Assembly: GCA_973895155.1 (NCBI GenBank)
Contig: OZ316893.1
Coordinates: 16,088,645-16,152,644, forward strand
Reading direction: 5' to 3'
Source of the DNA: Marsupella aquatica
Lineage: Eukaryota; Plantae; Marchantiophyta
Length of the DNA stretch: 64,000 nt
The notes below the pieces were generated by a model that was not told the DNA's origin, searched no databases, and was given only the letters and a program-made list of their open reading frames with translations. Of this stretch, positions 12,521 through 51,999 are shown piece by piece. The first letter of the stretch is position 1. Every line of letters begins with the position of its first letter. Position numbers and translations under genes: made by a program.

Positions 12521-14778
12521 ATTCAGAAAGTACCCGGAGAAAGTATTCTAGGTTCATTAGGTCATGGCCGTTGGCTCTCGTGCATTGACCTCCTTCTATC
12601 TGGGTGGGAGTGGGGGTGGACAAATCCAGCTCTGGGGTGATGAAGATAGGGGTAGCTGGATCCGTGGAGGAAGGGGGTTCTATTGGTGCTGGGGCGGGGG
12701 ATGTAGGTGCTTCCTCGACTGGGGCTACCTGCTCGGGGTCAGCTTCAACAGGGTTGGCCGTGACAGTTTCCCGAGCTTGGTTTTGTGCATCCAAGGTCTT
12801 GATGACTGCCGTGTCTAGCTGGTACGGAAGGAGGGGCTCCAGTAGTTGGCTGTAGGGTCAAGATGGAGGCGAAAGCCACGGGTGCTGGGCTTTGGGCCGG
12901 GTTGGGGCCGTCTCTCCTGAGCTAGAAAGACCCACCTTGTCGGGCTGAGTTCAGGCTTGTTGCACCAAGGAAGGGTTCGGCGATCAAAATGGGCGTACCA
13001 TTCTATGATAATCTTGATGTGGCTTGCAAGGTACGCCTTTCCCCAAGGTATAAGGTCTTCCTTTGTCATTCCATCTCCTTGTGGAACTTCTTGACAAAGA
13101 AAGAAGCCAACGGATATCTCTCCTCGTGGCTCCATCATGTGGAGCGCATACCTTTGGAACTCTAGCCGCTCTACTATCTATGGGATGAGGCATGTCTGCA
13201 TGAGGAAGCCGTTGTTCACCAAACCTTCAAGTGGGAAGCTAGAGGATTGGTACTTGGCTCCCTTGCCCCCTGGTGCCTGTGATTCTACCTGATTTTGTCC
13301 TTTGGGTAGGCCAAAGACGAGCTTAAGCCGTGCCTCGTTCAAGGACATCACTCGTCCGTGCGCACGGTTCTGTTGATGGGATTTGTCAAAGTTTTGGATA
13401 AACTCTATCATGTTTTGCCCGTAATACCTGCAAGTGTTCCAAGGAAGAGCGGCAAGGTGCTCAAACCCTTGGGTTTTCACGTAACATGCATGCTTTGGGT
13501 GGAGAATGTTTTTGTGAACATTCTCCCGCATTTGATGAATGATCAACTTGGCCACTACAATGGTAGCCACTGGTAAGCCGGATACTGAGGCTGGCTCCTT
13601 CCACTTCTTACCCCAAGATTGGTTTCCGGGGTGACTTGTTGAGAGGGACAACTCCCCGTCTTCCTTATCCGGTGGTGGCGGTATTGTCACTGCCGTCAGT
13701 ACTGGTGTCGTGGTCGTGACCATCACTGTGTTGTCTACCTAGGCCGCCTCCTAGGTTTGGACTTGCTGGGATGGTGGGGTGGTACCCGTCCTGGGTTGGT
13801 GGGTTCTCAATGGTCTACGGATAAGTGGTGGAGGAACTTCCTCATCCTCCAAGCTCAGGTTGACCGCGTTCAACACGGATTGCACCCAAGCGGGTGGTGC
13901 AACTGGTGGTGGAGAGCGGCTTGAGGGTGCTCGGGGTGGCCTCTGCGCCGGTCTTGGTACTAGTGAGTTGGCCGCCAGTGCTGCTGGAGTAGGTGCCATA
14001 GGACCTAGAGTTCCAGATGGGAACACTACTACATATTGGCCCCTTTTGCGAAGCTTTTTTTTTACGTCGGGATGGTCTGCGATGTCATCAACTTCAGATA
14101 TTTTGTGATCAAACACGCATCACAATAAACCATGCTCAAAGGTTTGCAACATAGTGTTGCGAAGCTAAATACCTCGCAATTTGTTTGAGATTGGATTGAA
14201 TTCGCAACTCTTTCAGATACTATTCGTCTCGCAAAGTATTTGTGGATCCGCGACCATTGCGACTGCATTTGGATCTCTTTTGTTTCATAATTTAGCGATA
14301 ATAATGTACTCAAATATATCTTGTGAACCTATTAGCTTCGCACAATATTGTGAAGTATAAATAGTCGCAAGTTACCGAAGCCAGTTGATTCACAAAGTTG
14401 AGAACCCATTGGCATCACAATTACCGATGGTGTGTTATTCACAAAGTGTTCAGAAGTTGCTTCTTGACAAGCTTGAAAATGTTTTTGCAAAGAGAGTTGT
14501 TTGAAAAGTTTGTAGAATGGAAATGTTTGAGAGAGTTTCTTTACAAGATGGAGAATGCATGTGTTTAGGTTACAGCTAGGGTTTTCAAAAAGGTGGCATG
14601 CATGAGGATAGCTTTGGAAACGGCTAGGGTTGCATATATAACAGTGAGATGAAATTTCAAAGTCCAATTAAGTGTTTGTAAAACAAAAGAAGAAAATTAA
14701 TATGTTAATATAAATAAAACCATGATAGTTAGTTTAGGGTCAAATTTTGGGCCCACAACAAGTTTTACTACTAGTGCA

Positions 14779-17700
14779 TCAAACCTGGTCCTCATCCTCT
14801 CCTCCATTTGACACAATAATAACGTCAGGTTTTTCCGAGATAATGGAACGGGACCGTGGCACATACGGTATAACAACTGACCACTCTGGGTCTGGTGGGT
14901 ACGGAATATAGAAACACTGCTCAAGGTGAATTGGGAATGTAAATGGTTCAGATGTTTGCCAATGAGATGGTTGAAAGCTAGTTGCTGATGTCATTAGTCG
15001 AGTAAACCCACACTCATCAAGAAGTACCGTGCGATTATCACCAACCAGGTGAATTTTGAACCACTTACACTTGAAGACATACTCTTCAAATTTGGAATCG
15101 GCATCATAGGATATGATCAAGATCTCCTCAATCTTCCCATAGTGAGGCACCACATCTCTGATCACATTAGTGTCATGACGGCTACTTTGTGAATCTTGCA
15201 TGAACTGCCCTTGAACTCCACAATCAAAAGTTCTTCCCCTCTTCTCATCAAGGTCAGAAATCCTGAAATGCCTCCCTTGTGTCCACATTGTTGTTCTGGT
15301 CTGAACAAGTCTTAGAGGACCATGAACAATTGTTCGAACCTCAGGAGTCATATCTGGAAAATGTGATACATTTTCACCTTGGGCCACCATAGCATCCAAT
15401 TGAAGTACTTTCTCCTTCATATACTCAAGGAACTTTGGAAAGATCCTTGGGCGACGACTCTCCCTCTTTGCATCCTTATAAAACTCTCTCCAATCTTCCA
15501 TCACATTGCTATTACTCAACATGAAAGTACTAACCTGTGTCAACTCCACTGCGGTTAGTAAGCGTGTTTTTTTTGCACCTGTTAAACGGTCCTCCTCCAC
15601 TTCCCTCTCTTCCATCCAAGTGCGTGGACAACTAGGATCAATGGTAGCTAAGATGTTACTACAATAAAACATACTCTCAGCTGCCAAGTATCCAGTTGCC
15701 ATGCTCCCCTCCACTCGTGCACGGTTCCGTACATAAGCCTTTAACACGGCCATATACCTTTCCAGCCAATACATCCACCTACAATGCACCGAACCGGCAA
15801 TGGCAACCTCCCTCACAAGATGAACGAGAAGATGCACCTAACAATCAAAGAAGGAAGGAGGGAGGGCCTTCTCCAACTTGCATGCCACCTTTGTTGCCAA
15901 TACCTCCATCCGTGGTATCTCTTCTTCATATATTTCCTTTGAGCATATCCATCTCAACAAAGTGCCCAGTGACCAAAGGGCATCTTGCACTTCTTCACTC
16001 CCCAAACCTATGATTGCCACAGGAAGTATATGTTGTAGTAAACGATGATAGTCATGTGTCTTGAGATACATTGGCCATTTATGATTGTCCTCCATCCCAA
16101 AAGCCTTACGTAGATTGGCACCATAGCCTGTAGGAAACCGCATCTGCCCTATGCGTTGTCAAAACTCTCTTCTTTCACCAACACTCAAAACCCATGGAGC
16201 TGAAGGACGATGTTCCATCGCTGTGGATTCATCAACTGTTATCCATACATCTGGATGTCGTTCTAGATCCTGGCATGCCTCCCTAAAATTAATGTTCTTT
16301 TCCCCATAAAAGTGCTTGATCAAAGCCTTCCCAACATTTCCCTCTATATGCATGGGGTCTAACAAGTGATGAATCTTCAACTTAGGCCAATAGGGCAAAG
16401 TGGCCAGTATACTCCACCTTGTCAATCCACTACCATCAAATCCCATGGCATCTTCAGGGTCTGCCACCCTATCAGCTATGGATTTCCAATACAAAAATGT
16501 TGTGCGGTCAGGTATCTCACGCTCATCACCATTGATCATGTCAAAGTCTGAAAACAAAAGGGGGTCAGACCTCATGTGATGCCCAAGTGGAAGAAACTTG
16601 GTATGACCAAGGTAGATTATCTTGTGCAGCCATTTTGAGTACTTGGCCATATCGTGAAGGCTTGGACCACAAGTGGAGCATGCCTTGTACCCTTGAGTTT
16701 GGAACCCAGAAACAAACCCAAACCCTGCTCACAAAATAACATTCTCAATTAGAGTCAAAGGAATTGAAAAGTTCATGTACATAGAATTAAAGAGGGACTT
16801 CCTTCCAAACAAACTTGATCTCCAATACATGAAAAAAATACAAATCCATACCACTCACCTGGATAGTCATGCATGGTCCACATAATGATTCCCTTCAATT
16901 GGAAGACACGTGGTAACCCTCCTGTAGTTGTCCGACCATCATATGCCCATACACCCCCCCATAATTTATGGAGTTCCCCAACCAAGAGCGCCAAGTAGGT
17001 GTCCATGTTTTTTACCTTAGATGGACCTGGGATAATCAATGATAGCAATAAGAATCCCTTTTTCATGGACAACCATGGGGGAAGGTTGTAATTCATAACA
17101 ACCACCGGCCAAACCGAAGTAGGGCGCCCTTTCCCTCCAAGGGAGTGTGGGCTCACCCCATCTGATGCCAACTCCAACCTCACATGACGAGGGTCACGTG
17201 CAAACTCTGGCCATTGTGACTCCACATGCTTGTGAGCAGGGGAATCAACTGGCAACCGCATGACACCAGCCTCTGATCGATGTGTCTTATGCCATACCAT
17301 CAATTCTGCCAAGTCAGAACATTGGTACATGTGCAACAATCGAGGAATAATAGGAAACCAACGAACAGCTTTTCTAGGCACCTTTGAGGTCAACATGTTG
17401 GTTTCATATCGAGGCTCTTGACAAATTGGACACTTAGTTGCGCTGACATTGGTCTCATGATAGAGAATGCAGTCATTCACACAAGCATGAATGATATGGT
17501 ATTCCATGCCAATGGATGATAGAACCCTCTTTGCCTCCTTCCAAGTTCCTGGCAACACATTTTCACTGGGTAACAAGAGATCATGGCAAATTGCAAACAA
17601 ATCCGATAGTAGCGCATTGCTTGCCTTGTGTTTTGCCTGAAGATTCATCAATGCCAAGATGGCAGATAGTCTATTCAAACGAGCACCCCCATAAATAGGT

Positions 17701-19356
17701 GTTCTAGCATGTGCCTCAGCTTCTTCCCATTGTTTTTGTCCTTCAGGTGTACGTTGAGGCCTTGGATCATGTGCAACATTTGGTGGAGGATCTCCTTCAT
17801 TGGGTGGGACACCTCCTTCACCACCAATGTCTACACCAAACCAATCTGTCATGAAGTCATCCATGGCTGACTCTTGGTCTTGCATGACCTCATAATATGT
17901 CCGAGGTGCCCCTTCATCTGGACTTTCATTATCATTGTCACTTGATGAGGAATCTGTTGATGATGTTTCCCCGTCTTGTGGCAAGCCCATTTCTTGATAT
18001 GTAGCTCTCAACCTCCTTGGCAACATATCTTGACTAGGCCGCACATTCTATAGACAATACAATAAAGCATTCACAATGAAATTAACTCCAAATATAGTAG
18101 TGCTCGAAACATATTATTAACAATATAAAAAGAACATGTCATTACAAAACATACGCTCACATACGATGAACGTATAATACATGTCCCTAAAGTAATCCTA
18201 ATCCCATTCATAATGTGTAAACAACTCCTCTCCAGCCAGAATGGTCCTATTAGCTACAACTAGACAATGGTCATGATGATATCTCTGCCCATAAGGGGCT
18301 GGAGGGGGACCATCAACAAAAACCCATTCACAGTTTTTCCTACGCTTAGGCCGGGTCCCCACAGTACTGTTGATGAAACCGGCAATATTCCCACTACAGA
18401 TGGGATCACCATCAATTATACGCTGGTCACAATATTTTCTGGTGCAACCATCAAAAGTATCCATGTCCAATGCATAAGTCTTCCACTCAGGGTGTTGAAC
18501 AAGGATCATGTTCCAATGTCTCCTCTTGTAAATGGGTCCACCATACGGGAACAACGTTGGTCCATCCGAAGAGCGCCCTTTTCCACCCATATCATCCACA
18601 ATAATGTCCTGACAAGAGAAAATCCCATACCCATGCCTCTCCCCTAGGGTCGAACTCTTGACAACCCAACGTCTTCCCCAAACTTCTATCTCCTCACCAT
18701 AGGTTATATCACATGGCAAACCAAGGCACTCCGGATTCCAATCCTTTATGATAGGAACACACTTCCCTGTGAAGGTACAAGGGCCCCATCTACCATCAAC
18801 CCTACAAGTGTACTGATCCACTTCCCCTCTAGGCTGTCTTTTTGACTTTTTTTTCCCTCTTGTAACAATACCGTCACCCTGAATTGTCCCAACACTACCT
18901 TGCCCTGTTGCCACTAAACGAAAAGCTTGTGAAAGTGCCGAGCCTATAGCATCTAGAACTCCTTGTGAGGGAACATAGGGTGTTGGTGTAGTGGGTGTAG
19001 GCCTACTGGATACCTATAGGAAGAAATGGAACCAAGTGAGTGTGATGAACCTCCCAAATTTTATTTTATGCTACCTAGCAAGATTTACAAAATAAAATGG
19101 AAATCACAGTAAGTTTACAACTCACCATACGGGATGAAGAAGCTCCCGGTGTAAGACCTCGATGTTGGCCATATCGAGCAATGTGCTCCGCACATACATT
19201 TGACTTTTGGACAACCATCCCCACACATTTTTTACAATCACAAAGTTGGCGTGGTGGACCACTAGGTTGACGTACGGTTGGTTCAGGCTGAGGAGGAGGA
19301 CAACTTTCTTCATCGGAAGAGGAATCTGTGGTGGAAGTTGTAGAGGATGAAGACAT
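14779..19356 (-). pseudogene. CACTA-A TnpD-type transposase (transposase-associated domain, Transposase_21, DUF4218, DUF4216); exons 19356-19126, 18047-16859, 16724-14779; two premature stops
   Basis: Motifs IHACVNDCILY, YNLPPWL, MHDYPG, LDPMHIEGN, KTHDYH, HLLVHL, WMYWLER and VFKCKWF. GT-AG introns keep the frame (1122 codons). Stops at 16159-16161 (TGA) and 15838-15840 (TAG) are consistent with C>T changes. Confidence 0.9.
18198..19356 (-). CDS. SET-domain protein carried by CACTA-A; predicted exons 19356-19126 and 19013-18198 (348 aa)
   Basis: SET motifs VKSSTL..HGYGIFS, YGG, IDG...GNIAGFINST and VVANRTILAGEELFTHY. The ORF is uninterrupted, and a phase-0 acceptor (TTCCTATAG) at 19014 is in frame with the upstream CxCxxC...H exon. 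Confidence 0.8.
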
Positions 19357-19789: not shown

Positions 19790-20760
19790 GTAACCCAAAA
19801 CCTACCCTAAACCCAAACCATGAAATGAAACCTTCATTAAAACCTAACCCAAATCCCTCAATCACCCTAAACCCTCACCCTCACCCTAACCAATACCCAA
19901 ATCCCTCATTAAAAATTCAAACCTTTACCCTAAACCCAAACCCCTACCCTAAACCCAAACCATGAAATGAAACCCTTCATTAAAACCTAACCCAAATCCC
20001 TCAATCACCCTAAACCCTTACCCTTATCCTAACCAATACCCAAATCTCTCATTAAAAATTCAAACCTTTACCCTAAACCCAAACCCCTACCCTAAACCCA
20101 AACCATGAAATGAAACCCTTCATTAAAACCTAACCCAAATCCCTCAAGCACCCTAAACCCTTACCCTTATCCTAACCAATACCCAAATCCCTCATTAAAA
20201 ATTCAAACCTTTACCCTAAACCCAACCCAAATCCCCCAATTACATATAAAACCCTTACCCTATCTACTTTACCTATATAGGCCAACCCCCACCCCTATAG
20301 TTATTCTAAACTTCACCCTAACCCCTAAATTGAGGCCCTTTTTTAAAACTTAAGCAAAAATTGAACCCCCTCAATTAGAACCAAATCCAACCCTATATCA
20401 TGTTACACCCCAACCCAAACACTTACATTAGAAACCCAACCCCTTTAAAAAAACCACAATTAAACCCCCCAACTAAAAACCAAACCCAATCCCTTTAAAA
20501 AACAACCACAATTCAACCCCTCAACTAAAACCAAACCCAACCCCTGTAATTACTCACAACCTAATGCAAACCTCTACCTTGAACCCTAAGCCAAACCCAT
20601 TAATTTAAACCCAACCCTTTTATTCCAACCTAACCCAAGTTTTAACCCCCTTAATTAAACCAAATACTCCTAGATTAAAACCAAATATAAACCTAACCTT
20701 TAATTAAACCCAAACCTTTGTTAACTTATATTCTAGTTATCCTTACAACCCAAACATCCA
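19790..20760. repeat. Telomere-like (CCCTAAA-rich) degenerate array including ~3 tandem copies of a 142-143 bp unit
   Basis: Unit starts at 19801, 19943 and 20086; almost no G on the + strand; lies between the divergent genes of CACTA-A. Confidence 0.85.
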
Positions 20761-21215: not shown

Positions 21216-23165
21216 ATGGCTACCGGTGAGGGGAGTGGAGGGCAAGGTGGTAGTGGTAGTGGTAGTGGTAGTGGCAATGGGGGAAATCCAGAGAAAGAGA
21301 AGAATGCCTGGGCAGACTTAGTGGCCCAACATCTCAGTGCTGCACAATTGGGAGAAGAGAAGGCTAGAGAGAAAAAAAGGAAGAGAGAGGAAAGAACTAA
21401 GTCGGGAGTTGCCTCTCCTCAAGCCCTAGAGAAGCAGAAGAGAAGAGAGGAGAGAGATTCAATTCGAAAACAGAGGGAGGAGCAACGTCAGAAAGAGGAA
21501 GCAAGAAAAAAACTTCCATTCATTGCCTTGGAGACGAGTGGGACTCCAACTGAGCTAGCGTATGCAGGGGCTAAGAGCACAATCAAGCAGATTATCACAA
21601 GCAATTTCTCACGAGGCATGCAGTGGGGGAAGATTGAGAAGGCATAGCGAAAGAGGGTCATCAACCAAATCAAGGATGCATTTCGCAATGGGCCTGACAT
21701 AGATGAGCAATGGTTGGCAGATAAGATTTCAAATTCTATGTCTCAAATGCGATACCATGACAGGATGAAGATTAGAACCCACCTGAAAGACTTGAGATCA
21801 TACAGGAACTTGCGCAGACCCCTCCACTTCACCGAGGACATCTGGAATTCGTTTTACAAGATTGAGGTGCAAATTAAGGCAGCTCACGAGTTGGAAGAGT
21901 GGAAGGGCAATCTAGATCGAGCCTTGAAAGCAAAGGAGGCTGGGAAGCTCCCCCCTGACCACAACCTGAAGCCACTTGAGCAGAAGGTAGCTGAGATGCA
22001 GAAGGTGGCCGACCAGGAGGGAAAGCCACCCAAGCGTTTCACAGATGCAACCAAATGAGTGAAATCCACCCCCAATCCAGTCCACAAGTTGGGTCAAGGC
22101 GGGCTCCCCGGCCTCAAGTCACACTTTGTGAGTGCCTCTTGCTCCTCCCTAACCTCTCTATTCCTTTCAGAGTTGTGCAATGCAAGTGAATGACATCCCC
22201 GAATGTTCTTGCTGTTGTGCATGCTTGCTTGGTTACTAGTTTAGGGCAACTCTGACACTTAGAATTTTTGGCAAATTTTTAAAAGCTCTCGGGAACACAG
22301 TTTGCGAAGGTGCTGCGATGCGCATTTGTTCGCAAACCCCTCGCAAAGTCTATCATGGACTTTTTCCATTTCAATTTTCCGATGCCTTTGCGAACAAATG
22401 CGCATCGCAAACTCCATCGCAACGCCTTCGCAAAAAATGTGGTTCGCAAGTTGCCATGCTTATAGGTTTGCAAATTTGAATTTTGAAATTTTTTTGGGGT
22501 CGTGTTTAGTAGTTGAGGATTTAGGCGTCACTTGTGGCTATAGGGTATGCTTAAGGGCAAATTTAACCAATTTTAATTGGTTTTATGCATGGCAGTATCG
22601 GAGGTACAAAAGGAAGATATCAAAAAAGCATATTGCGGTGGCGATAGAGCATGGACGAAAGTACCTCTTTGCGATGGTAGATGCCGAGTTGGCTACTATA
22701 AGTGTCTAAGTGTGAACCATATGATTAGCATGCGAACATTGTGAGTGACCCTTTATGTCTTGCGGAAACTAATGATATGTAATGGATGCAGGATTCGGAT
22801 GAGCCTGAGGGGTCGGGTGCTGATGTGAGCAGTAGTGATGACGATGAGGGGGCTACTCCTGGTACTAGTGGTGCTCGGGGGGGAGTAGTCGTGAGGTAGG
22901 TTCTTCCCACCGTGGTAGTGGTGGTAGTTGTGTGTCATCAGCACACGTTGATGACCTGGGGGAGGAGGAGGACCCTGAGGATGAGGAGGAGGAGCAGGAG
23001 GGGCAGGAGGAGCCAGAGGAGTAGCAGGAGCAGGAGCGCCGACGGCCATCACGCACCCGTCACCAACAGGATCCCCGGAAGGATAAGGGCAAGAAGCCAG
23101 CCAAGAAGCCAACCAAGAGGAGCCGCAAGAGCCCATTCTAGTTATTTTGTAGAGATACATGCATG
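21216..23165 (+). pseudogene. CACTA-A second gene (TnpA/Ptta-like), spliced, with premature stops
   Basis: In-frame pieces 21216-21647 and 21714-22058 read on to HKLGQGG. Donor GTGAGT at 22128; further likely exons at ~22596-22675 and ~22792-23165. Acidic and basic low-complexity tail. Confidence 0.6.
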
Positions 23166-26100
23166 AGAGTGACTTGTCATGTCGGAGCTTAGGGTAGGAA
23201 GAGGCAGCATAGGTTTAGAAGGGCGGACCTAGCATCAGATATTCCCCCCTCTTGTCCATGTATAGGGTTCTTTGAAGCCCTATCATTTTGTTCATGCTTT
23301 TCCATTTTATAAAACAACAATTTTGCCTTCCACATTGGGTCCCAAGGAAAACCCCTCGCAAATAATGTATTGAATCCTCTGTGATCATAATTTTGTGAAC
23401 CCTTTAAGAACTCATTCCCATTGCACAATATAAACCCCAAGGCGTCGCACTTTTTGAGTCAATTAACTTCAGAACTTCAGATCCAAATATGTCAGGTTTT
23501 TGTGATACTTCTAGGATCGCACTTTCCTAATCGCACTAGAAGAAACCGGCCCATTCTGAGACCCTGCCTTAAGTGACTCTAATGAGACCTTGCAAAATTT
23601 GTGACTCCTAGGTTTTGGGTGTCATTATAGTTACAAGTTGTGGACTGAGTTTTGGAGAATTCTTGGGAAGTCATTTCTATAACTATTGGGGAAGTTGCAA
23701 CTATAACTAAGTTCAGCCAACAAGAATGAAGTTGTATAAGTGACTCCCTCTACAATAGAGCGTTATATATGTAAGAGAGCCTTAGGGTTTAACACCACAA
23801 TCTAACCACATTTGACCCCGCCCAACACATACCATTTAGGATATATCCTAATTTTCTTAGTTGTCAATGGGACTAAAGGAGATGCCCTCGGGATATTGTG
23901 TGAGTACGCAACTCTACAAGGTAAGTAAAGGTCCTTGGTCAATGTCAATGCTAACAGATCTCAAATATATACTCTACATTAGAGTAGACTGAATTACAAC
24001 ATATGTATGCCACAAGTTTACAAGTGTTACAACATAACAAAATAATCCCAACTAGCTAGGGTCCCACAATGGCATGCATGTAATATTAATTGGACTCATT
24101 TTTGTGTCTAAATGGGTACATTTGAAGTTATCTCCTTGGTTATCTCTAACTCTCACATATGCAAGGGCAGGTTATTTTTACTTATTGCGCGCCATGCCAT
24201 GCATACATACCGTCATGTACCCCCTCCACACATTGTTCCATCTAGATTCCTTTAATTAAAGGTTCAAAATCACCAAGAACTGGGAATGCAGCTGGAACCT
24301 CCATGTACTTGGCATGTCTACATGTTATAATTAGACATATCTGATAATGGCACCCCACACACTATGCTCATGGAATGAGCATAAGAACTTGTGACAGTCC
24401 TTACCTTAATTAATCAAGCAAGGATCTGACGGTCGTAAACTTAATCAAAGGATGATCTGACGGTTGAAAACAAATATGGGCACATTAAACCAGGTTTAGG
24501 GTTTAATGGATTCCTTCACGCCAACTCCCATTGCGCCTTGGATTCCTTTGGATTTGCGGACGAGGAGCTGATCGCGCATTCTTTGCGAGGGAAAAAAGGG
24601 GGCAGTTTGTCGATCACTAAGGCTGAAGCTGCATTGACAAATTGCAATCCCGACTGCAATGGGAGTAGTAGGAGGCAAGAAGAGCGAGTTTAGGGTGTTG
24701 CATAGACAAAACAGAATGTGAGTCGTAGGCAACATTCAGCCATTGTATGTGTTTAGCATTGATCATAGGCACTGTGGGAGGCACTGCAGGAGGCGTTTGC
24801 CACTGCGCAAGGCACTGTAGGAGGCACTTGTTCCTTCAAGCTGGGAGAGTCAATTTGACGTTCAGCTGCAACCTGGGATCGAGAACCAGGAGCTTCTCAT
24901 TGCGGTTTGGTGTGCATTTGGACTGTTCTTGCAAAGTGGGACTCCAGGCCTGGAGACATTGCATTGATCGCCTTTGGATGTACATTGCAGTCCGACTAGG
25001 AGGCTTTCAAGTGGAGCTGGGTTGGAAGTGAGTTGAAGATTGAGTTGCCATCACATTGCAATAGCGGGGGATTGTTGCTCAGCTTCACATACTGCTACGG
25101 ATTACTACGCAGCTTCAGTTTGAGCGGCTTGGTGCTGCATCAGCCCATGTAAGGCTGCAATCCCCTATCTTTGCTATGTGACCTCGCGGCTGCAAGTTTG
25201 GTTGACTTCTTTGTGCTGTGAAGCTGTTTTTGACTCAGGTTCCGGCCAAGTTTCACCAGCGCAAATTTTTCTAAACATGAGTGTGGGCTACAACTGGTGA
25301 GGTGGAAGGGATAAGAAAATGCGCTACCGTCATTGACAACATCTCAACCTTTTACAGTGAGCGCTATTGACATTCGGCCGGCTGTAAGTGTATTTCAAGC
25401 TTGACTTTAACTTGCCATCTGCATGAACCGGCTTGCAATAGATGTTGTAGCTTTTGCTTAGCTGCATTCACCTCCCAAGATGCCCCGTGACATCCAGGTT
25501 TGCACAATGAGATAATAAGGCTGAAATGATAAGGTAGTGATTGCCAATGGATAAAAAGCTTTATGAGAGTTGCTTCAACGTTCAGCTGCAAACTAGGATT
25601 AGGAACCAGGAACTTGTCGCGGCAGTCCAGCTTGTTTACTTGGAGCCGGAGCTGGAGTCAAGTTTCACATGTTTCTTGTTTAGTGACAGAGTACTTCTGA
25701 GAAATGTGACAGCCCCTGTGAGAGCTTTCGGCACCAGTGAGGTAAAGGGTGTTCTTACTCATGCAATAGTCACTTTGACCTTCTGAGTTTCAGCAAATTG
25801 AGTTTCAAGTGCGGGCACTGAGAGTTGACCTGTTTGAGCTGGGGTCACTGAGAGTTGAGCTCTTTGAGCTACGGTTACAGAGAGTTGAGCTGTTTGAGAT
25901 GCGGTCTCATAAGTGAACTAGATCCTCCCCCGTGTAAACGTCTAGCATAGTCACATGTCCAAGCTTTGCTTTTGACTCTGAATATATTCACTGTCAACCA
26001 TTGAAGGAGCTACGTGCATGAATTGTCTACTTATTGGGTTGTTTAGGGATTCAATATACAAAAATGACAACTTGAGTAAGGCAGTCTACGGAGGCGCGAA

Positions 26101-27014
26101 AGAGTCGCGAGGAGTCGAGTTCAGCTACGGCAGTATTCACTTCAGTTGTCTCAATGTGGTTGGCGTGAGCTGCAGGTGAGCTTAGCTGTGTGCACATTTC
26201 ATGTAAGTCAGGTGGTCGGTGTTTTAGGCATTGCGGAACTTGATTGACCACCCCATGGCTAAGGTTTAAGGTGCGGACTACAACAAATATGTGTTGTTGC
26301 TGAAAGTGTTGGTGGTGAGCGACAACTGGTATTGTTTCAGCTAAAGGGAGCACATTGGAGCTTGTGTATCCATGACCTGCGACCGATTGCGGTTGCCTGC
26401 TGTTACAATTGCCGAATCAATCACGCACCCAATCTTGCGGGCAGACACAACTTTGCGGGAGTGTTGAAGGTTTAGGGTGAGCAACAGCGGAGAGCTCATT
26501 GCTTGGTGGCAGGGTTGAAGGTGGATGATCGGGCTGCAAGGCCAACCGGGGACTTGTTTTGCATTGAGCGATTGCTGCGGATTGCTACGCAGCTTCAGTT
26601 AGGGCGGCTTGGTGCTACATCGGCACAGGTAAGGCTGCAATCCCCTATCGACGCGGACTCACCTCGTGACTGCAAGTATAGTTGTCTAGGTGATGTATGC
26701 ATTGCGTGTTTAGGGTCTAGGTGACATCACTGCTAAGCAAAATTTGTGAGCTGCCTAGGTCCATTGCCGAATGTTGCTTCCTTTAAATTACCTGGTGCCT
26801 GCTGTTACAATCGCCTGCTCAATCATGCACCCAATCGCCTGGAGCTCATTTGCCTGGAGCTTCATCCGTCAGATTCAAACTGTTATTGCTGCTCTGCCCT
26901 TTTGCCATGGGTTGCCGGCCTACCGGATGCTATCAACAGATTAAGAACAAGTCATATCCTAAGTCCCGGTGTTGCAGTGATGTCCCCGACCCTAAGATGC
27001 TTTCCAAACTCATC

Positions 27015-27385
27015 TTTCTTGTTTCCTGTTGCTGCTGATGTATGTATGTTCTCCCCTATTTTTGCTTACAGATTGGTCTCTCCACACTTCTTGCTTGACA
27101 TGATTGTTTTGCTCCTCCCTGTATCAGAACATGCCTTGTGCCCGGCGGTGGGGTGGGGGGGTGAACAGACGACCTTAAGGTTCACTACATTTCTAGGAAC
27201 TGTGCATCTTTCAGCTGATTTTAGCCGCAAGTTCCCTTGCTTTCCCCTGTTTTTGCTAAGATCCCTCCCACTAATCACATGCATCTTTCAGCTGATTTTA
27301 GCCGCAAGTTCCCTTGCTTTCCCCTGCTTTTGCTAAGATCCCTCCCCACTAATGACATGCATCCTTTACTTTTCTCGGTGGCCCG
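27015..27385 (+). repeat. ~300-bp segment shared with 61900-62208, with an internal ~76-bp tandem duplication
   Basis: Shared strings such as GATTGGTCTCTCCACACTTCTTGCTTGACATGA and GCATCTTTCAGCTGATTTTA. Confidence 0.85.
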
Positions 27386-28553
27386 TGCGCCTGCCTTCCT
27401 ACTTTCGTTCTTATGGACTCTCCTTAGGTTTTCATTCACCTGGTTTTGGACTTTTTGCTCCGGTGGAATCTGTCTTGACAACTTGTGTTTGTTCTAATTG
27501 TTAATATCTCAAGAGGGTCGTCAACTAAGCTGAAAGGAGTCAAAGCTAACTACAAGCTAGCAAAATAATACAGAGAATGCTCCCAAGTCGAGTCAGGAGG
27601 AAGTTACTAAAACTAGACCTTCACAACTCTCGAAACTGGAAAGTGAAATTCAGCGTGAGACACGTAGCTGAAGGCCACAAGGATAACTATATGGCCACGC
27701 TGTCCCCCATTCAAGTCCAAAGTCCTCTTCAGATTGTCTGAACTCCTATTGAATGTATTGAATAATTATTTCATCACAGAAATTTTCAGAACAAACACGG
27801 AAGCACCAGGGGGCTGAGGATTAGGTATTGAGGCTGAAGACATTGAGGTCATAAACTAGGTGTGGTTCGGGTGACAATGTTAGCAACTGATGCTTCTTCA
27901 GGGGAACTTCCCATGTGCAGTTTATCCACACATGATTGACTTTGGTTCTTGCTGTTTTTCTTTTGGTGTACTCTTGAGTTTGGTGTCACTCTATCCTTTC
28001 CTGTAGCCTCGAAATAGGAACACACCTGCTTAGTGGTCCCCAATCGCCCAATGATTTATAATGACTGTGTCTAGGTGATGTATGCATTGCGTGTTCATTC
28101 CAGAAGAATGAATATGTACACTTTGCACAAACCTGGACAGATTTTGAATGTTATTTATCTGAGTTTCTGTTTGTGAGCTCTGACTTGGAGCCTTAACATT
28201 TGTGTTTCTGTGGGGCTGAGCAGAGTTTGTTCAGTCTAGAAGCTGCTGTACTGAAGTGATCAGCCTCCGGCTTGGAGGTGAATCTTCAATTTTTTGTGGA
28301 TCCGAGTGACTTCTGTCCAACTGAGTTTTGCTTTGTCGGGACGATTGTGTTTGGCTAAGATGCTAGATTGTGGCTTGTCTTCTTGCTTCCAGCTTGTGTA
28401 TTTTCAATTAATAGAAGTTGGGAACGAAGTGATAATTGAATTTCCTTATATTAAGCATCTTCACCTAGAAACTCAATACATAAACTCCAGGATTCCCTCG
28501 GGACATAAAATGAGCCAAATTGTCTCAAAATTGGGAACCTGCACCCGCACTAC

Positions 28554-28896
28554 TCAAACAATTGTGTTGGGCTTGGTGGCCTTGTAAGTCTTCTTTAGCT
28601 TTCGCAATGGAGGTTGAATCTTGCAGTACGTCAAGGGGAACTTGATCTTTGAATCATGGAACTGCTTGGTACTTTCTCGCTTGCACAGAGAGACAGGGAC
28701 TGTCGTAGTCTTCATGATCTGGATGCAAGGGAACCGAACTCTATGACAAGAAGCCATCTCATCATACATCTGCTCTGCAGCTCCGTTTCTTGTGGTATCA
28801 CAATATTCCTTGTACATGTTGTGATAACCTGTACGACTCTGATACGTGGACCCAGATACCGAAGTTCTTAATTGTGGTGGGCTTCTTTTTGAAGAT
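28554..28896 (-). pseudogene. RPL18A: Captured fragment (C-terminal exon) of 60S ribosomal protein L18a/eL20
   Basis: [46 protein letters not shown]...[18 protein letters not shown]. The frameshifted [11 protein letters not shown] start directly follows a CAG acceptor. No N-terminal half is present. Confidence 0.9.
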
Positions 28897-29904
28897 CTGG
28901 TAGACACATTATTCAGCATTTGCTAACTTCAAAACTAGAAGGGTAACACATTAAACAACAGAGAAACTCACAACATCCTCCTTTGGTCCTTTAGAGTCTG
29001 TACTTTGATTCTGAAGTTTGACTGAGTTTTTGTTTACTAAAAGAATGTGACTGTGTAAGAGTTCCGTTTGGCAGTGGATTGGTTGAAGCACTTCATGCTA
29101 GTGTGTTGTCCACAGCTCTTCAACCAGCTTTCGTCTTCCTTGTCTTTCACCACTTACGATGACATCAATTCAGCTAAGACCATAGAAGGTTCCAAAGCAT
29201 CTAACTTGTAAAATCGCATTCTGTTACATCAAGGACTAAGGTGTTGGGTGCCAAAGGAGACAGCACAACAAACACGCTGAAAAGACTTCAGGACTGGGTT
29301 CAACAAGGTAGTGAAGGTGCTTAGAGCCATAGTAAGTATGCATTCTGTATCTTTCTCTATTGATGTGAGCTTGTGCATAATGGGAGTTGTAGTTGGCAAG
29401 AGTTCCAAATATGAATAGATCCAGAAGTATGTGATCATGTACTTGCTCTATAAAGTTCTGAAGATATAAGCATTTTCTGTTAGACCAGGCAACTTGGGAG
29501 TTGGTAAGTGTCACCTGCATCTGAGGGGCTACACCGGGGCATCAGTGGAGGTTCACTTGCACAACACGACAACCAGTGAATTTTCTCTCTGCTGCAACCT
29601 GCAAGGTGAGACTTTCGGTCTTTCTGGATGAAAAAACAGGAGTTTAATATGATTGATATACATGTCCGTCGAGAATATGGGTTTATCACCAAGCTCTTTG
29701 TCTTAGGAAACTCATAAACTCAGAATCAAATATGTACTATGCACGTTTCATGCTATGTGTATACTATGACCTGTAGTTGGAACCAAGACAATGAGTGGGA
29801 ACTGATTAGTTTAGGTGGTTGCTGTTGGCGAGGCAAGTCGACCTCCTGCTCACCTTGCTCATCAAAGGACGTGAACAGAGGACATCACAACGAAAGCAAC
29901 ACTT

Positions 29905-30354
29905 ATGGTGAGGACCCGCAACGCTGAACATGTGCGACTTGCACGCAAGGCAGAGATGTTGCGCCTTGAGTATGTCAGACTTGGGATCCTTCCAGCCCAG
30001 TCTGCATGGTACTTTGAGTACCCTGTTGTTTCTAGGAACAACTACAGCCGGCCTCTACCTGCTTCAGTACCCTTCCCGACATCCTTGGTATTTGTGTCTC
30101 TTGTACATGACCCGCCACAAATTAGGTGCCAAGGGTGTGTACACAGTTGCCAATATGACTGTCCTGCCTGTAGGGCTTCTGGCCCAGAATTGGATGACCG
30201 TTCTCTTGGATGCCGATTTTTGCACAGAGCACAATGTATCATCTGGAACCACTCGCCATCCTGCAGTGTGCCTGGTGATGTCACTTGTCCTGCCCTCCCA
30301 GACCCCACCACCGGTGACTTTGGTGTCTACACATGTTTGGATCACATGCTCTAG
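29905..30354 (+). CDS. Cys/His-rich 149-aa hypothetical protein (possible zinc finger) in CACTA-B
   Basis: ATG-initiated open frame with CQGC..SC..DCPAC...C..H...C...H...C...C...C..H; same strand as the neighbouring cargo ORFs; no family recognised. Confidence 0.45.
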   Translation: MVRTRNAEHVRLARKAEMLRLEYVRLGILPAQSAWYFEYPVVSRNNYSRPLPASVPFPTSLVFVSLVHDPPQIRCQGCVHSCQYDCPACRASGPELDDRSLGCRFLHRAQCIIWNHSPSCSVPGDVTCPALPDPTTGDFGVYTCLDHML

Positions 30355-30970
30355 AGGACCACTTGTCACACCGCATGCACAGACCAGATACCATTGACCT
30401 ATAGCTTAACACTCTGACTTCAACACAGAGGATATTTACTTAAAATTTTGATGTATGAGCAATTTTGGGTCCAGGGTTTAGGGTCAACAGTACATAACTT
30501 ATATCCTATTATGCCTGCACTAAGCAAAATATCCTAATTTAAGAGGCTAGCAAACTCGCATAAAAGTCTCTATTGAAAGACTGCTTTCATGACTGCTTTA
30601 ACCTGGTGAACATTGCAACGTTGAATGAATTAATGGGCCATGTGATAATATGCAAAATGATTTATGCCTCACTTATTTGTCTCAGCCACTATCATAACCT
30701 ATTTAGGATGTATAAATTTCAACCCTTATGACACTGCTTCATACCAATCCTCTTCGAAGAATGCCTGTTTTACATGTCACGACTATTGTATGTGATTCAA
30801 ATGCATGAAATGTTGTTGCAGATCTCCTTTGGTGAATCATAGCCACAATTAAAATTGAGGTGTTGGTGGAGAAATTGTATTAGGGGATCAGTTTTGTGTG
30901 TGGGCTCAACATACCAAAAGTATGTGTGCTCTGCATCCTTGTGTGGCCATTCCAATTCATTGCAGTAGCA

Positions 30971-31113
30971 AATGCCTTTGTACCTTAAATGCTAAATATA
31001 TTTTACTTTCTGTGCAGTCTGCTAAATTGTAGAGTCTATCTAAATGCCTTTGTACCTTAAATGCTAAATATATATTACTTTCTGTGCAGTCTGCTAAATT
31101 GTAGAGTCTATCT
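30971..31113. repeat. 72-bp tandem duplication immediately upstream of the PHD ORF
   Basis: AATGCCTTTGTACCTTAAATGCTAAATATA...GTAGAGTCTATCT at 30971 and 31043. Confidence 0.85.
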
Positions 31114-31124
31114 CATGCGCAGGC

Positions 31125-31805
31125 ATGGCACGGCCTAAAATTCAAGCCAAAAAGCGTGTGACAGAGGTGAGAAACACAGGTGTACTTGGGGCAGATGCTA
31201 CTAACTTCTCTGCAAGTCAGATTTTCCAGAAGGCAGCTCATTGTTGTGCCATTTGTGACGATGGTGGGGGCCTGGTCATTTGTGAGGGCCCTTGCATGAG
31301 GCATTTCCACCTCAACCCGGAGTCTGACCTTGCTGCAGAAAACAACTGTCCAGGGGTGGGCCTCCCGTCAACACACCAGGGAGACTGGATGTGCACTGAT
31401 TGTTTGGAGAAGCAGGCTAAGTGTGCACAGTGTGGGAAGTTGGGGTCCTATGAGGGCTCTGTTGATGCTGCAGCAAATGTTAGGAAATGTCCAGACCATT
31501 TTTGTGTGAGATTTTTCTGTTTTGAGTGTTTGCCTGCTCATGCCACAGCTTGCCCACTTCATAGGTGCAAGGCATGTGGTGAGCATGATGATGACTACTG
31601 GACTGACATAGTCCACTGTGCTAGGTGTCCCACTATGTGGCACTATCATTGCCTGAAAGATCATCAAGCAGAGGGTTATGCTTGTGACAGAGAAATCTAT
31701 GATCACTCTGCACATGGTGTTGATCGATGGATATTTTATTGTCATCGCCATGCCATTGATCCTACCTCGCGCACTCCTGTGAGAGATCACATATCTTGGC
31801 TGTGA
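31125..31805 (+). CDS. Stand-alone EDM2/NSD-type composite PHD-finger protein (226 aa) in CACTA-B
   Basis: CAICDDGGGLVICEGPCMRHFH...C..C...C..CGKLGS...CPLHRCKAC...CARCPTMWHYHCL...IFYCHRHAID....TPVRDHI follows the EDM2 PHD region as recalled, including its distinctive YCxxHxID...TPxRDH tail. Confidence 0.85.
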   Translation: MARPKIQAKKRVTEVRNTGVLGADATNFSASQIFQKAAHCCAICDDGGGLVICEGPCMRHFHLNPESDLAAENNCPGVGLPSTHQGDWMCTDCLEKQAKCAQCGKLGSYEGSVDAAANVRKCPDHFCVRFFCFECLPAHATACPLHRCKACGEHDDDYWTDIVHCARCPTMWHYHCLKDHQAEGYACDREIYDHSAHGVDRWIFYCHRHAIDPTSRTPVRDHISWL

Positions 31806-32391
31806 AGCTGAACATTGTACATGCACAGTGCACCTGATGTGGATGTACTATTTTTTGAGATTGCAGAGATTCCAATTTTGAAAAGGAGTTGGGTAGGCGA
31901 GTTTATATAGGCAGCACTTATCTTGTGCTCTGGCGTCAGTGGCTGGGTACATGCCTATACAAACTTATCCTTACAAGCCTTCTTGGAAGTATTTAGGCTG
32001 AGTGGTCATTTTCATAAACACTTTCATCACACTGCTAAATTAAAACAGGACTTCTAAGTTGTAAGCGTATAAATTATCAGGCATGCAATTAATCAAATTG
32101 CCCTATAAGTTTGTCATTGAATGTATCCTCCTTTACAACAAAATATGTATGTGCCATGACAAGTTGGTTGCACTTCATTTCACCACGGATATGGATTTTG
32201 TAGTATATATTCAAACAATGTCCTGCATCCGTGCAGGTGCCTAGTACGTATTGTTCACATATCCCTTGTACCTATCAAAATCGGACCTGAGCACCAGTGG
32301 GCCAGATCAACTCAAAAAGCAGGAATTTTGTTGTCCTTGTATTGTCAGGTGAACCCATTCTTCCAAAATTCACTGTCATCACGTAGGGTGT

Positions 32392-33270
32392 GTGTACATG
32401 GAGCCTGGTAAACGTAGAAAGTGTGACCACCCAGCAGTGTTTACAGGGGTCAGAGCGATTTTGGTCCATGGCCAGCATGGGTTGACCAAAGTGCATTGGC
32501 CAACTGTACAGAAACGATTCTCTGAGCTCCATGGCACTGTAGTTCAGGACATCACTCCAGAGACTACACATGTTGTTGCAGGGACATGGCTATCAGTGAT
32601 AAAGAAGTGGTCATGGTCCTACATGAATTCTGCAATTACTAAGCAAGGCCTAAAAGTAGTTGAGGCCTCTTGGATCACAGATTCCATAGCACATAAGATT
32701 GTACAGGATACTGAGCAATATGAGTTGTGGGAGGATGAAGAAGCTACTGCATCAGCTTGGGCTGAACAAGAAGTCTGGGAAGCAAAGGCACGGCTTGCTG
32801 ATCTCCAATATGGACCTGTACTCAACAAAGGACAGAGCTCTACAAGGCTGAAGAGTATGTTGGCTGAGGAGACGAAGCAACCAACCCCCATTCTGAAAGG
32901 GCTGAGCATGGTATTTGTGGAGGCGGGAATTGGAGAGGTTAAGTGCAAAGTGTACAAGTCCACAGTGCTTGACCTAGGTGGGACAGTGGAGGAGAATATA
33001 ACAGAGGACACCACTCATGTCATTACTAAGTCATATCCCAAAGCCTGCCGCAAGTTTGGGAAGGGAGACATTCGCTTTTATGTCATGTCCCATAATGTGT
33101 TTGTGGTTTCATATGCTTGGCTTGTGGAATCAGTAGCAGCTGGGAAGCGTCAAAACCCAATGGACTATGATCTTTTTGAGGCCTGGCCACGGAAGGGTCA
33201 GGATCCTTACAGAGAGGACTATGAGACAACAAGTGAGGAATGGGTCATTAGCGATTCTGAATCAGAGTGA
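32392..33270 (+). CDS. Tandem BRCT-domain protein (292 aa), DNA polymerase lambda-like BRCTs, in CACTA-B
   Basis: Two repeats: FTGV...HGTVVQDITPETTHVVA...VVEASWITDSI...QYEL and LKGLSMVFVEAG...LGGTVEENITEDTTHVI...VSYAWLVESVAAGKRQNPMDYDL. Acidic tail; uninterrupted ORF. Confidence 0.85.
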   Translation: MYMEPGKRRKCDHPAVFTGVRAILVHGQHGLTKVHWPTVQKRFSELHGTVVQDITPETTHVVAGTWLSVIKKWSWSYMNSAITKQGLKVVEASWITDSIAHKIVQDTEQYELWEDEEATASAWAEQEVWEAKARLADLQYGPVLNKGQSSTRLKSMLAEETKQPTPILKGLSMVFVEAGIGEVKCKVYKSTVLDLGGTVEENITEDTTHVITKSYPKACRKFGKGDIRFYVMSHNVFVVSYAWLVESVAAGKRQNPMDYDLFEAWPRKGQDPYREDYETTSEEWVISDSESE

Positions 33271-33703
33271 GGAGTAGTAGCATCAGTTTGGACACAAGTT
33301 TTTTTGTATAAATCAGATCATTGAAATAAATGTGATCTTTGAACTAATGTACCTTGTTATGGTTGGTGGCAGTTGGGCTTATTTTACTGTTGGCGGATTG
33401 TTGTTTCCTGCTGCCTGGGGGTGTCACTGTAAACGTACATGCAGAGGCGGTACATTTGAGGACAGCGGAGGAGGTGGTGACACCCTCCAACATTTAGAAA
33501 TTTTGTGTCATTCACTTGACAATAGGTACACTACTTGCGAACCTGTTTTTTTCTTTTGGGGTGGTTTAGGGTTTGTGAGAATTTAGTACACGTTATGTTA
33601 ACTCTTTTGGCAGATACAGTCAGGGATATATGGAACACAAATACCACCATTAGGCATCCTTGTTCACTGCTGTCCATGACTGCAGAGCTCCCAGCCTGTT
33701 ACA

Positions 33704-36700: not shown

Positions 36701-37434
36701 CTGCAGGAACAACTTTTCCAGGTTTCATGGAGTGGATCAGAGTGGCAATTAGAGAGCATCACGAGACCCACCCAGACATGGATGCAGATGTTTACCTACT
36801 GTCTAATGCCCCTAGCCTGAAAGTGAAGACTTACAAACGGATGAGAGCATATGGGAATCACTTCCGAGTGAAGGATGGTGACAGTGCCTACAGGGTGACG
36901 AATGACTGCGGGCTCATCACTGTATTTGAGCAACAGAGCCACAATCACGACAGGGCCTGGATGGAGATGGGATATGTGGGAGAATTAGTTGACATATGGG
37001 CTCTGGACTATGGGGCGGTGTCCAGTCCTGTGATTCTTATGAAAGGTTCATGGGTGCGGCAGGATTGGCTTGGTAACAGGGCTACCATGAAGAGAGACAA
37101 CGACGGTTTCTTGCTGGCCAATTTCAGAGGGAAATTGCCCGAATGGTCTGAGCCATTTGTGTTTCCTAGTCAGGTGGAGCAAGCTTTCTTCCTGGATGTG
37201 GAAGACTCCCCAGGTTGGCGTGTAGTGTGTCATAAACAGGCCAGGCAACGCCGGATGGAAGGATCAAACCTTGAGTTTCATTTACACTCTCATAGTGCCT
37301 TTGATCGTCGGCGTTCAGACCAAGTGCCTGTAGTTCATGATAGCGGGGACTTCATTCCTGTGACAAGGGTAGATGCATTTGCTGAAGGAGGCGAATTCAG
37401 AGATGCAGATGCCAACAGTGTGCCTGTGCCATGA
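33704..37434 (+). CDS. CACTA-B TnpD-type transposase; predicted exons 33704-34028, 34085-35526, 35650-36551, 36669-37434 (1145 codons)
   Basis: CPCAIC...H N-terminal domain, IHACPDGH, LGLSLDGVNPF, YNLPPW, ADYPA, DVMHIEKN, KSHDYH, FFDVMTHLLVH, WLYPLER and EPFVFPSQVEQAFF. Stop-free only if a short 56-nt GT-AG intron (34029-34084) is spliced. Confidence 0.85.
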
Positions 37435-37590
37435 GTAATGTGAATTGTTTGCATAGACATTAGTGAGGGGAAGGATGTGTAATAAAGTAATTTTGAAGCA
37501 ACACAGATGTATGGATGGATGCCTGGTGATTGTGGTTGCATTGTGTTATACGGGGTGACCATAGATGACATGTTTTTGTGGTCCAGTAGG

Positions 37591-40500: not shown

Positions 40501-41297
40501 AGAATAAGACAGGTGCTACAGAGAAGAAGTATGAGAACCTGGCAAATACTCGCTGTAATTTAGAGGCAACAAAGTTGCAGTCTGTACAAGCAACTTGTTT
40601 GACAGAGGGCAGTCAACCATGTTTGGATGAGGATGACATTGGCAAGGGAGTGGATGATATCAATGTTGGGGCAAATGAGGATATCAGCAAGCATGACAAT
40701 GATACCATTGAGCCAGATTCATGCTATGTAGATCTTGACTCCATTGCAGAGATAAATGATTTGCAGAATGTATCATTCTCAATGACAGGTGTGCCTCTTG
40801 TTGAGATAAATCCAACCAAAGAGTTAGTTGGTATGACACTCCCAGGTGATGAACCTGCTACTGTGACAGTCCTAACAGAGGAACCTACTGAGCCTAGCTT
40901 CACTACTGTGAAGAGAGGAAGCATGCGCACACGAAGCAAGTCTGCTGGTGGGAGCAGAGCCACGTCAAAGGTTTCATACAAACCTCCAAGAACAGTGCTG
41001 GCAGAAAGATCTAAGGTGGAAGTGGGGAAAGCACCTAATGCTGAGGGACAAAGTGGCTTGTTAGCTGTTGATGAGAGTGGAACACGAGTAGGATTTGCCA
41101 GAGTGCAGGTTGGTTCCACAACGTTCCATGGCAAGAGGATTCCCCCAGGTTATTCAGTAGTGTTAGTCACATTACTAGTGAAACCTAAAGCTGTCCTTCC
41201 CATTCCAAACACAAATGATGATCCTCCTCAAAAGACACTTGGAGATGCTGCAGGTTCTTTGGTATTATGGCCAAGCAAGTTCATAGAGGATCCATAA
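37591..41297 (+). CDS. CACTA-B second gene (TnpA-like; Ptta-type middle domain and Tnp1-like C-terminal domain), multi-exon, possibly disrupted
   Basis: Exons 37591-37703 and 37810-38068 splice in frame. Motifs VWARLVAYF...KKSSQMTEAR...TGRTG (~39630-39745) and FHGKRIPPGY...LPIP...TLGDAAGSLVLWP. One candidate exon near 38188-38410 contains stops. Confidence 0.65.
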
Positions 41298-51927: not shown

Positions 51928-51999
51928 GACCAGTACTCATTCCCATAATTATGCCTTTTGAGTTGTAGCATTTTGGGAGTTTTTTAAGTATCATAGTTG

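Follow-up and report, generated by a model that had tools for sequence, protein, structure and literature searches.

A SET-domain exon within the transposase gene of a CACTA element from Marsupella aquatica, its predicted splicing to a shared first exon, and its candidate role as a lysine methyltransferase

Can a plant transposon make a chromatin-modifying enzyme from the same gene that makes its transposase? The question is raised by a locus of Marsupella aquatica in which an exon encoding a SET domain lies between the first exon and the Tnp2 exons of a CACTA transposase gene. Other transposons bear chromatin-modifying accessory genes, as described in the available parts of PMC12730594 and bioRxiv 10.1101/2025.02.11.637652. 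The locus was analysed within a stretch of 64,000 nucleotides, called the window below, and all positions refer to it.

The host element spans positions 14024-42547, and its ends, TSD and a nested insertion are resolved. The left TIR (14024..14043), on the 3' side of the transposase, starts with CACTAC like the right TIR (42528..42547), to which it is identical at 13 of 20 bases. A 29-bp stretch of the left TIR is 93% identical to the end of the related locus L020, and the matching end of the related loci L005, L008, L038, and L039 starts with CACTACAACA... Comparison of the flanks identified a 3-bp TSD, GAA, at 14021..14023 on the left and 42548-42550 on the right. Moreover, the flanking repeat has a paralogue near 770-840 (minus strand) in which both flanks are joined by a single GAA and which represents the empty site. 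The CACTA-type TIRs, 3-bp TSD, and Tnp2-type transposase agree with the definition of CACTA (EnSpm) elements given in the available text of PMC4158355. The CACTA context claimed in the original prediction is thus genuine, with the SET exon located between a Transpos_assoc exon and the Tnp2 exons. From the ends, the TSD, and the empty site, the element that houses the SET exon is a complete CACTA that was once mobile. The copy in the window is decayed and has three premature stops, two in the transposase and one in the second gene, ORF A.

A second, different CACTA (23534..42152, TSD TCG) sits in the right subterminal region of the host element, which has a length of 9,902 bp when this insertion is subtracted. 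The nested CACTA has its own Transpos_assoc and Tnp2 domains, and no SET match was found in it. Just 5' of its transposase, at 31098-33270 (plus strand), one ORF has three regions that match NSD-type PHD fingers (23.8, 23.6, and 17.1 bits, each under the cut-off) and a second ORF has tandem BRCT domains (50.5 bits, above the cut-off); judged from these matches, the pair resembles an accessory gene for chromatin reading and DNA repair, borne by a second CACTA lineage. The nested element also contains a ribosomal protein L18a fragment at 28554-28922 (minus strand; Pfam 66 bits), probably a captured host piece. A Transposase_24 (Ptta/En/Spm)-like ORF and another ORF at 39139-41297 (plus strand), 3' of the nested Tnp2, are probably the ORF2 of this element. 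Elsewhere in the window, long inverted arms with 70-90% complementarity and a 3.3-kb centre (47400-53600) resemble a fold-back element, and ORFs at 58777-61609 (minus strand) resemble exons of what is presumably a host R2R3-MYB transcription factor gene.

The host CACTA has two divergent genes, the transposase gene on the minus strand and ORF A on the plus strand (21216..22058; one premature stop at 21645-21647). They are separated by telomere-like, strongly strand-biased T/G repeats with a 143-bp tandem unit (19790..20720); related loci have weak, unconfirmed matches to this repeat region at the equivalent place. ORF A is rich in Lys/Arg, matches no Pfam family, and probably has a degenerate acidic second exon near 22790-23140. 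The transposase gene starts with a shared exon 1 of 77 codons (19126..19356, ATG at 19356), comprising a Ser/acid-rich start and a CxCxxC...H domain. This exon matches Pfam Transpos_assoc (PF13963) at 19.1 bits, below the cut-off of 27.7, and is 36% identical over 33 aa to the equivalent domain of the nested CACTA. An AG immediately 5' of the ATG suggests an intron in the 5' UTR. The predicted intron 1 (19014..19125, minus strand), recognised from sequence signals, is 112 nt long with a phase-0 GT donor, an AG acceptor, and a T content of 0.40. The SET exon follows (18198..19013, minus strand) with 271 codons and a stop; it consists of a variable linker (residues 1-70), a family-specific pre-SET hairpin and helices (71-106), and the SET core (107-271). 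The AT-rich spacer behind it (18048..18197, minus strand; T 0.46) is predicted to serve as the 3' UTR in the SET form and, in the transposase form, as the 3' part of the long intron. The GC contents of the two intervening stretches, 0.33 for intron 1 and 0.29 for the spacer, are lower than the 0.45-0.48 of the exons.

The remainder of the gene encodes the transposase. Exon 2 (16859..18047, minus strand) carries the Tnp2 domain (PF02992, 129 bits, E 1.6e-37) and ends in a phase-1 donor, and exon 3 (14779..16727, minus strand, acceptor at 16727 or 16724) carries the end of Tnp2, DUF4218, and DUF4216. PF13960 is matched in the transposase at 76.7 bits and PF13952 below the cut-off. The two premature stops are located at 16161-16159 (TGA) and 15840-15838 (TAG); both are of the C-to-T type relative to the related loci, as expected for the decay of a methylated copy. 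The last transposase exon, uninterrupted from 14779 to 16727 in the window, contains at least one and probably two extra introns in relatives (L014 2890-3070, L015 2615-2790), a difference that would fit intron loss or gain between lineages.

The central claim of the original prediction was that a phase-0 donor, 19126|GTGAGT, serves two acceptors at 19013 and 18047. Both predicted junctions are in frame. Exon 1 ends in phase 0 at 19126, directly before GTGAGT, and its joining to acceptor 19013, after the AG at 19014, gives a protein of 348 aa that ends in ...ELFTHYEWD with the TAG at 18200-18198; the length and the end at 18198 are those foreseen for the fusion. When exon 1 is joined to acceptor 18047, the frame continues for 473 codons up to the next donor. 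Moving either splice site by 1-2 bases leaves a product of only 79-97 aa, and a shift of 3 bases keeps the frame but has no AG. In 20,000 shuffles of the SET exon, an open frame of 271 codons was never obtained. The acceptor TAG of intron 1 is itself an in-frame stop in the window copy, and the first Met of the SET exon is residue 142, within the domain and past the GxG motif. The SET domain can therefore be made only by splicing to an upstream exon. Inside the SET exon, no conserved donor was found, and the donor-like sites of the window copy are not kept in relatives; the exon thus reads as a terminal exon. The form that skips the SET exon, a predicted transposase of about 1,120 codons, is supported by the conserved in-phase acceptor and by the exon-1-type domain directly before Tnp2 in the nested CACTA. 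As a point against this form, codon 8 of exon 2 is a Met from which the transposase could be translated with no exon 1. In contigs from four DNA-like runs, none of the 15 joints listed corresponds to either junction and one contig crosses intron 1 unspliced, observations that have no bearing on expression.

Relatives of the locus share this geometry. Of 655 candidate proteins, the search with the SET exon retained 41, with identities of 30-80%. Public gene models of Calypogeia and Sphagnum, which are themselves predictions, have the same exon 1 start and the same junction, including P0001 of Calypogeia fissa (351 aa, 67%), P0003 of Sphagnum (343 aa, 63%), and others. The Sphagnum protein belongs to a 90% cluster of 360 sequences, of which 40 were read. 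A metagenome scan using conserved SET patterns gave 40 loci that resemble the Sphagnum proteins; since they belong mostly to one young family (dS ~0.05), they are equivalent to one or two independent lineages. In 33 of the 40, the SET match has exon 1, transposase exon 2, or ORF A beside it, with the order unchanged. Where there was room, exon 1 was present upstream in 16 of 20 loci and exon 2 downstream in 24 of 27; ORF A was present in 7 of 13, placed and oriented as in the window. Seven loci (L023, L024, L031, L033, L034, L036, and L037) have partial SET matches with no transposase parts nearby and may be copies with deletions or fragments carried off by other elements. All 17 related loci compared keep the donor GT of exon 1; 15 of 17 have an in-frame AG in front of the SET exon, and 21 of 23 have an AG acceptor in front of transposase exon 2. 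In contrast to these splice sites, the intron interiors align poorly with the window copy. The layout with one shared exon, as originally proposed, thus has its donor and both acceptors conserved across related loci, and it is likely, judging from these signals, that the exon 1-SET protein and the transposase are produced by splicing in two ways.

Wider searches place the SET family in context. Searching 1.84 billion representatives with a profile yielded 124 clusters; an exon-1-like domain occurs in five of them and four continue into Tnp2 sequence, the remaining clusters being mostly single-ORF calls with no visible neighbours. Among 20 clusters looked up, the organism was named for five, four from Riccia sorocarpa and one from Calypogeia fissa. 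In an unrooted tree of the 69 of 94 rows with at least 125 core residues, the window SET falls in a supported clade of 13 rows with the Sphagnum and Calypogeia copies. No canonical host SET gene is present among the named relatives. A viral origin was also considered: no relative was found among 37 pattern matches in viral contigs, the 17 viral structure models matched at E<=0.001 are no better than cellular SETs, and Atlas matches are mixed, comprising haptophyte, streptophyte, and giant virus entries. Searches for a gene model that joins exon 1 to the transposase gave weak negatives. The exon-1 search of longer proteins had one match among six candidates, which was an exon-1-SET piece, and the first 180 residues of exon 2, compared with proteins longer than 693 aa, gave no match among 743. 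Five gene models (P0027, P0071, P0158, P0183, and P0192) present a three-way fusion of exon 1, SET, and transposase. They are taken as prediction artefacts because the SET domain is broken at differing places and the donor-like sites are not conserved.

The exon is maintained by selection between lineages. For the SET core (codons 107-271), comparison of the window copy with 30 loci gave a median dN of 0.17 and dS of 1.21, and the transposase core, compared with 12 loci, gave 0.17 and 1.22. A dS of about 1.2 could point to horizontal transfer. The dN/dS of the SET core thus equals that of the transposase, which marks the exon as a kept accessory gene. Against five single loci, dN/dS of the SET core lies at 0.12-0.16 (95% bootstrap upper limits 0.20-0.26); SET divergence by codon position is 0.17, 0.13, and 0.47. 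The linker is nearly unconstrained (dN 0.66, dS 1.11). The choice of loci by conserved SET patterns brings some bias to intact exons, which cannot yield such a contrast over 163 codons. The comparison across the family proposed at the outset therefore returned purifying selection on an exon that is present in relatives, with no neutral decay between lineages. Young related copies differ among themselves with a dN/dS of about 0.9 in SET and 0.64 in the transposase, values to be expected if the bulk of their differences postdates insertion. The original prediction had also contrasted an open SET frame with a transposase broken by two stops. The stops are there, but the contrast carries no information, because an open frame of 271 codons is expected with a probability of 0.6 at the stop density of this copy. 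In the related loci, stops per 1000 codons number 3.3 in SET and 4.8 in transposase exon 2.

The product of the exon was examined by profile and structure. Pfam SET (PF00856) matches the exon at 26.5 bits against a cut-off of 22.4 (E 8.8e-6). A model of residues 62-271 built from a 94-sequence alignment reached a pLDDT of 92.2 and a pTM of 0.87; this alignment remedied an earlier model from 29 close sequences (pLDDT 43.6, best Foldseek E 0.34). Likewise, the PDB sequence search had no match with the single protein or the 29-sequence alignment, and the 94-sequence profile matched. At E<=0.001, Foldseek returned 274 matches in the PDB, with SET8 and LegAS4 at the top. In a search against 48,161 chains, the best 41 rows are all SET/PR entries, with the best Z of 12.2 for Set1 (rmsd 2.5, 124 aligned) and with PR domains among the close matches at Z 10.9. 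The Z values of Set1, EZH2, SET8, SET7/9, NSD2, and LegAS4 are tied within 1 at identities of 14-26%, so no histone site is assignable. Both checks proposed for the fold, by HMMER and by structure prediction, thus gave positive answers, and it is well supported by the modelling that the exon encodes a real SET-fold domain. The domain was originally likened to the compact viral vSET. The absence of Cys-rich pre-SET and post-SET clusters, which the window SET has in common with LegAS4/RomA, SET8, and vSET, bears this out. In contrast, no special link to vSET was found, as viral and cellular SETs match equally well and vSET is absent among the matches listed for the 94-sequence model.

The motifs of SET enzymes are GxG, NHS/C, and ELxF/YDY; in solved structures the amine of SAM is bound by the Asn, and Cys can stand in place of the His (available sections of PMC6054832). 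In the window protein, the GxG motif is G128-Y-G130 (18624..18632, minus strand), with G128 kept in 76 of 83 family rows and G130 in 83 of 84. E263 of the ELxxxY motif is kept in 72 of 75 rows, and the catalytic-position Tyr of ELFTHY is retained as claimed: it is Tyr268 (18210..18212, minus strand), three residues before the stop, and Y stands there in 69 of 72 rows. At the NHS position the protein reads N-S-T from N215 (18363..18371, minus strand). The family departs from the canonical NH(S/C) form, with the Asn kept (82 of 90 rows) and the His replaced; the next residue is S in 86 of 89 rows, N in 3, and H in none. This departure counts more against canonical membership than against activity. 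NST was originally taken to make activity uncertain. The motif is present as described, but its reading as damage fails, as it is a family-wide trait. It is not a sign of decay because S is found in 86 of 89 family members and because the active relative LegAS4 has no His. LegAS4 is the best PDB profile match (E 3e-8, aligned end to end) and reads N-F-S at the NHS position. It is an active H3K14 methyltransferase according to the accessible text of bioRxiv 10.64898/2026.05.29.728679. Of the six residues altered in the dead allele of LegAS4 described there, four counted on the alignment are identical here (Y157, Y180, N215, and Y268), the fifth has a similar counterpart in T179, and the sixth (Tyr231) lies in a segment missing here.

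The C-terminal end of the domain is more unusual. After the catalytic-position Tyr, the tail has 3 residues in the window protein and 2-59 aa in the family, with a median of 5-6 (n=70 rows). The structural alignments end at SET8 residue 339; the post-SET/cSET segment is therefore absent from the window protein. In solved enzymes this segment helps to form the cofactor and peptide sites, as stated in the available sections of PMC6054832. The nearly absent post-SET tail is the main doubt about the predicted activity. The conserved pre-SET region and the inserted loops of the family might replace the missing segment.

The preferred reading, with a probability of roughly 0.4, is that one pre-mRNA with two acceptors gives rise to both proteins and that the shorter one is a SAM-dependent lysine methyltransferase that acts on the histones of the element to counter silencing. 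In the DNA, a single predicted donor after exon 1 stands in frame with two acceptors. Use of the near acceptor would join exon 1 to SET and end the transcript in the AT-rich spacer, and skipping of the SET exon would give the transposase of about 1,120 codons. Since the SET exon lacks a usable start in the window copy, its translation would depend on exon 1. The SET core is predicted from the model to bind SAM via GxG, Asn215, and Tyr268. The weakest step comes last: the shared Cys/His domain may target the SET form to the transposase complex or to element DNA, and there the SET form may write a mark that opposes host silencing and keeps the element expressed. The choice of acceptor would also fix the ratio of transposase to regulator. 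A broader proposal, which we regard as doubtful, is that a widespread bryophyte CACTA lineage encodes minimal, tail-less histone methyltransferases by acceptor choice and aims them by the transposase N-terminal domain. Such a lineage would give the first demonstration in land plants of a transposon that writes histone marks on itself to counter silencing, and its SET active site would be closed in a new way.

Alternatively, the exon 1-SET protein would be a catalytically dead SET domain that serves as a reader or decoy and binds a histone tail or a host silencing enzyme. The almost complete loss of the post-SET tail across the family, the absence of the NHS His in all 89 rows, and the closeness of PR domains (Z 10.9) speak for such a protein. 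In contrast, GxG, Asn215, Tyr162, Tyr180, and Tyr268 are found in 91-99% of rows despite pairwise identities down to 22%, which exceeds the expectation for a binding module, and the active LegAS4 shows the same loss of His. A dead domain is on balance improbable, though a serious contender. An active lysine methyltransferase with a non-histone substrate, most likely the transposase, ORF A, or a host silencing factor, would tune transposition directly. The protein has no histone-reader domain attached, its first exon is common to the SET form and the transposase, ORF A is rich in Lys/Arg, and SET7/9 is tied among the top structural matches. SET7/9 has non-histone substrates. No substrate is indicated by any analysis here, however, and most accessory enzymes of transposons in the literature have been interpreted as acting on chromatin or DNA (available parts of PMC12730594 and bioRxiv 10.1101/2025.02.11.637652). 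This substrate assignment is rather unlikely, with enough in its favour to be kept in view.

The locus may also consist of two genes with no alternative splicing, in which exon 1 always leads to SET and the transposase, encoded by an RNA of its own or by read-through, is translated from Met 8 of exon 2. An early exon 2 Met occurs in Sphagnum proteins too (P0071), and the Arabidopsis En/Spm families alternate between spliced and split-gene layouts (PMC13547354, in the text available). Such a division is quite improbable: in 21 of 23 loci exon 2 is preceded by an AG that is in phase with the exon 1 donor and follows a T-rich tract, and the exon 1 domain is transposase-associated and lies directly 5' of Tnp2 in the nested CACTA. 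A functionless passenger, captured as a host-gene fragment, is the least credible explanation and highly improbable. CACTA elements do capture fragments, such as the L18a piece of the nested element, and dN/dS of SET is about 0.9 among young related copies. Decay after insertion yields such a ratio, however, and the value of 0.12-0.16 between lineages at dS of about 1.2 largely refutes a neutral passenger; moreover, a captured fragment finds no canonical host SET gene among the named relatives.

SET-bearing DNA transposons are already known. In the available text of bioRxiv 10.1101/2025.02.11.637652, the accessory gene PAG2 with SET (PF00856) is carried by Plavaka elements (EnSpm/CACTA superfamily) of red algae, and its function is proposed. 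PAG2 and the window element are alike as SET accessories of DNA transposons of the EnSpm superfamily. In contrast, PAG2 is a separate gene in a three-gene cassette with another transposase lineage, and its SET is fused to an N6-adenine methylase, whereas the window SET lies inside a Tnp2-type transposase gene and shares the first exon; the two were compared by description only. Pfam finds SET alone, with no N6-adenine methylase, in the exon and in the full-length homologues P0001 and P0003. SET genes also occur on HarbingerS and Phytophthora MuDR (Kojima and Jurka 2014, as cited in the accessible part of PMC12730594) and as ORFs in oomycete Helentrons, with an intronless stand-alone SET ORF of about 153 aa in the proto-Helentron (PMC4067079, available text). 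These are SET-carrying DNA transposons like the window CACTA, from different superfamilies and hosts, and a shared-exon layout is not described for them in the portions of PMC12730594 and PMC4067079 available.

Alternative splicing of En/Spm genes is established (available text of PMC13547354 and bioRxiv 10.64898/2026.08.24.746577). In maize En/Spm with TnpA/TnpD and in Arabidopsis EN/SPM3 and 7, as these sources describe in part, a single CACTA gene yields both the transposase and an accessory protein, and the predicted window layout is alike. TnpA is a helix-turn-helix DNA-binding regulator reported in the text accessible as confined to flowering plants, whereas the alternative product here would be an enzyme-type domain. 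VANC of VANDAL MuDR elements is a plant DNA transposon protein that counters the silencing of its own family; the same role is only proposed for the SET form. VANC differs in being a separate gene and in inducing loss of DNA methylation (as cited in the available parts of PMC12730594 and bioRxiv 10.1101/2025.02.11.637652). Primate SETMAR, which unites SET and transposase sequence and has splice isoforms, resembles the predicted window gene, but it is a fixed host gene that combines a host SET and a tamed mariner in one protein (PMC6715855, in the sections available). In contrast, the window SET is part of a mobile element, and its SET form has no catalytic transposase domain. Among the compact SET enzymes, at only 14-25% identity, LegAS4 and SET8 continue past the Tyr into a C-terminal segment that is missing from the window family. 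In the literature covered, which lies outside Repbase and subscription journals, no published report was found of a SET exon with a shared-exon layout in a land-plant CACTA, and the available text of PMC11982613 mentions no such SET-bearing CACTA element. What is new here is the host group, the exon shared with the transposase, and the tail-less SET family.

The oomycete and red-algal transposon SET genes have been catalogued, with no functional tests in the parts of that literature available. The window contributes a complete element with its empty site and a selection test between lineages. The land-plant case offers mosses and liverworts with genetic models, a small single-domain protein with a high-confidence predicted fold, and selection as strong as on the transposase. 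The question of whether transposons write their own histone marks thereby becomes directly testable. Moreover, many of the genes annotated as 'SET domain-containing' in Sphagnum, Calypogeia, and Riccia are probably parts of transposons and not host chromatin genes. If the preferred reading is true, anti-silencing by plant transposons would extend from VANC and TnpA to an enzyme.
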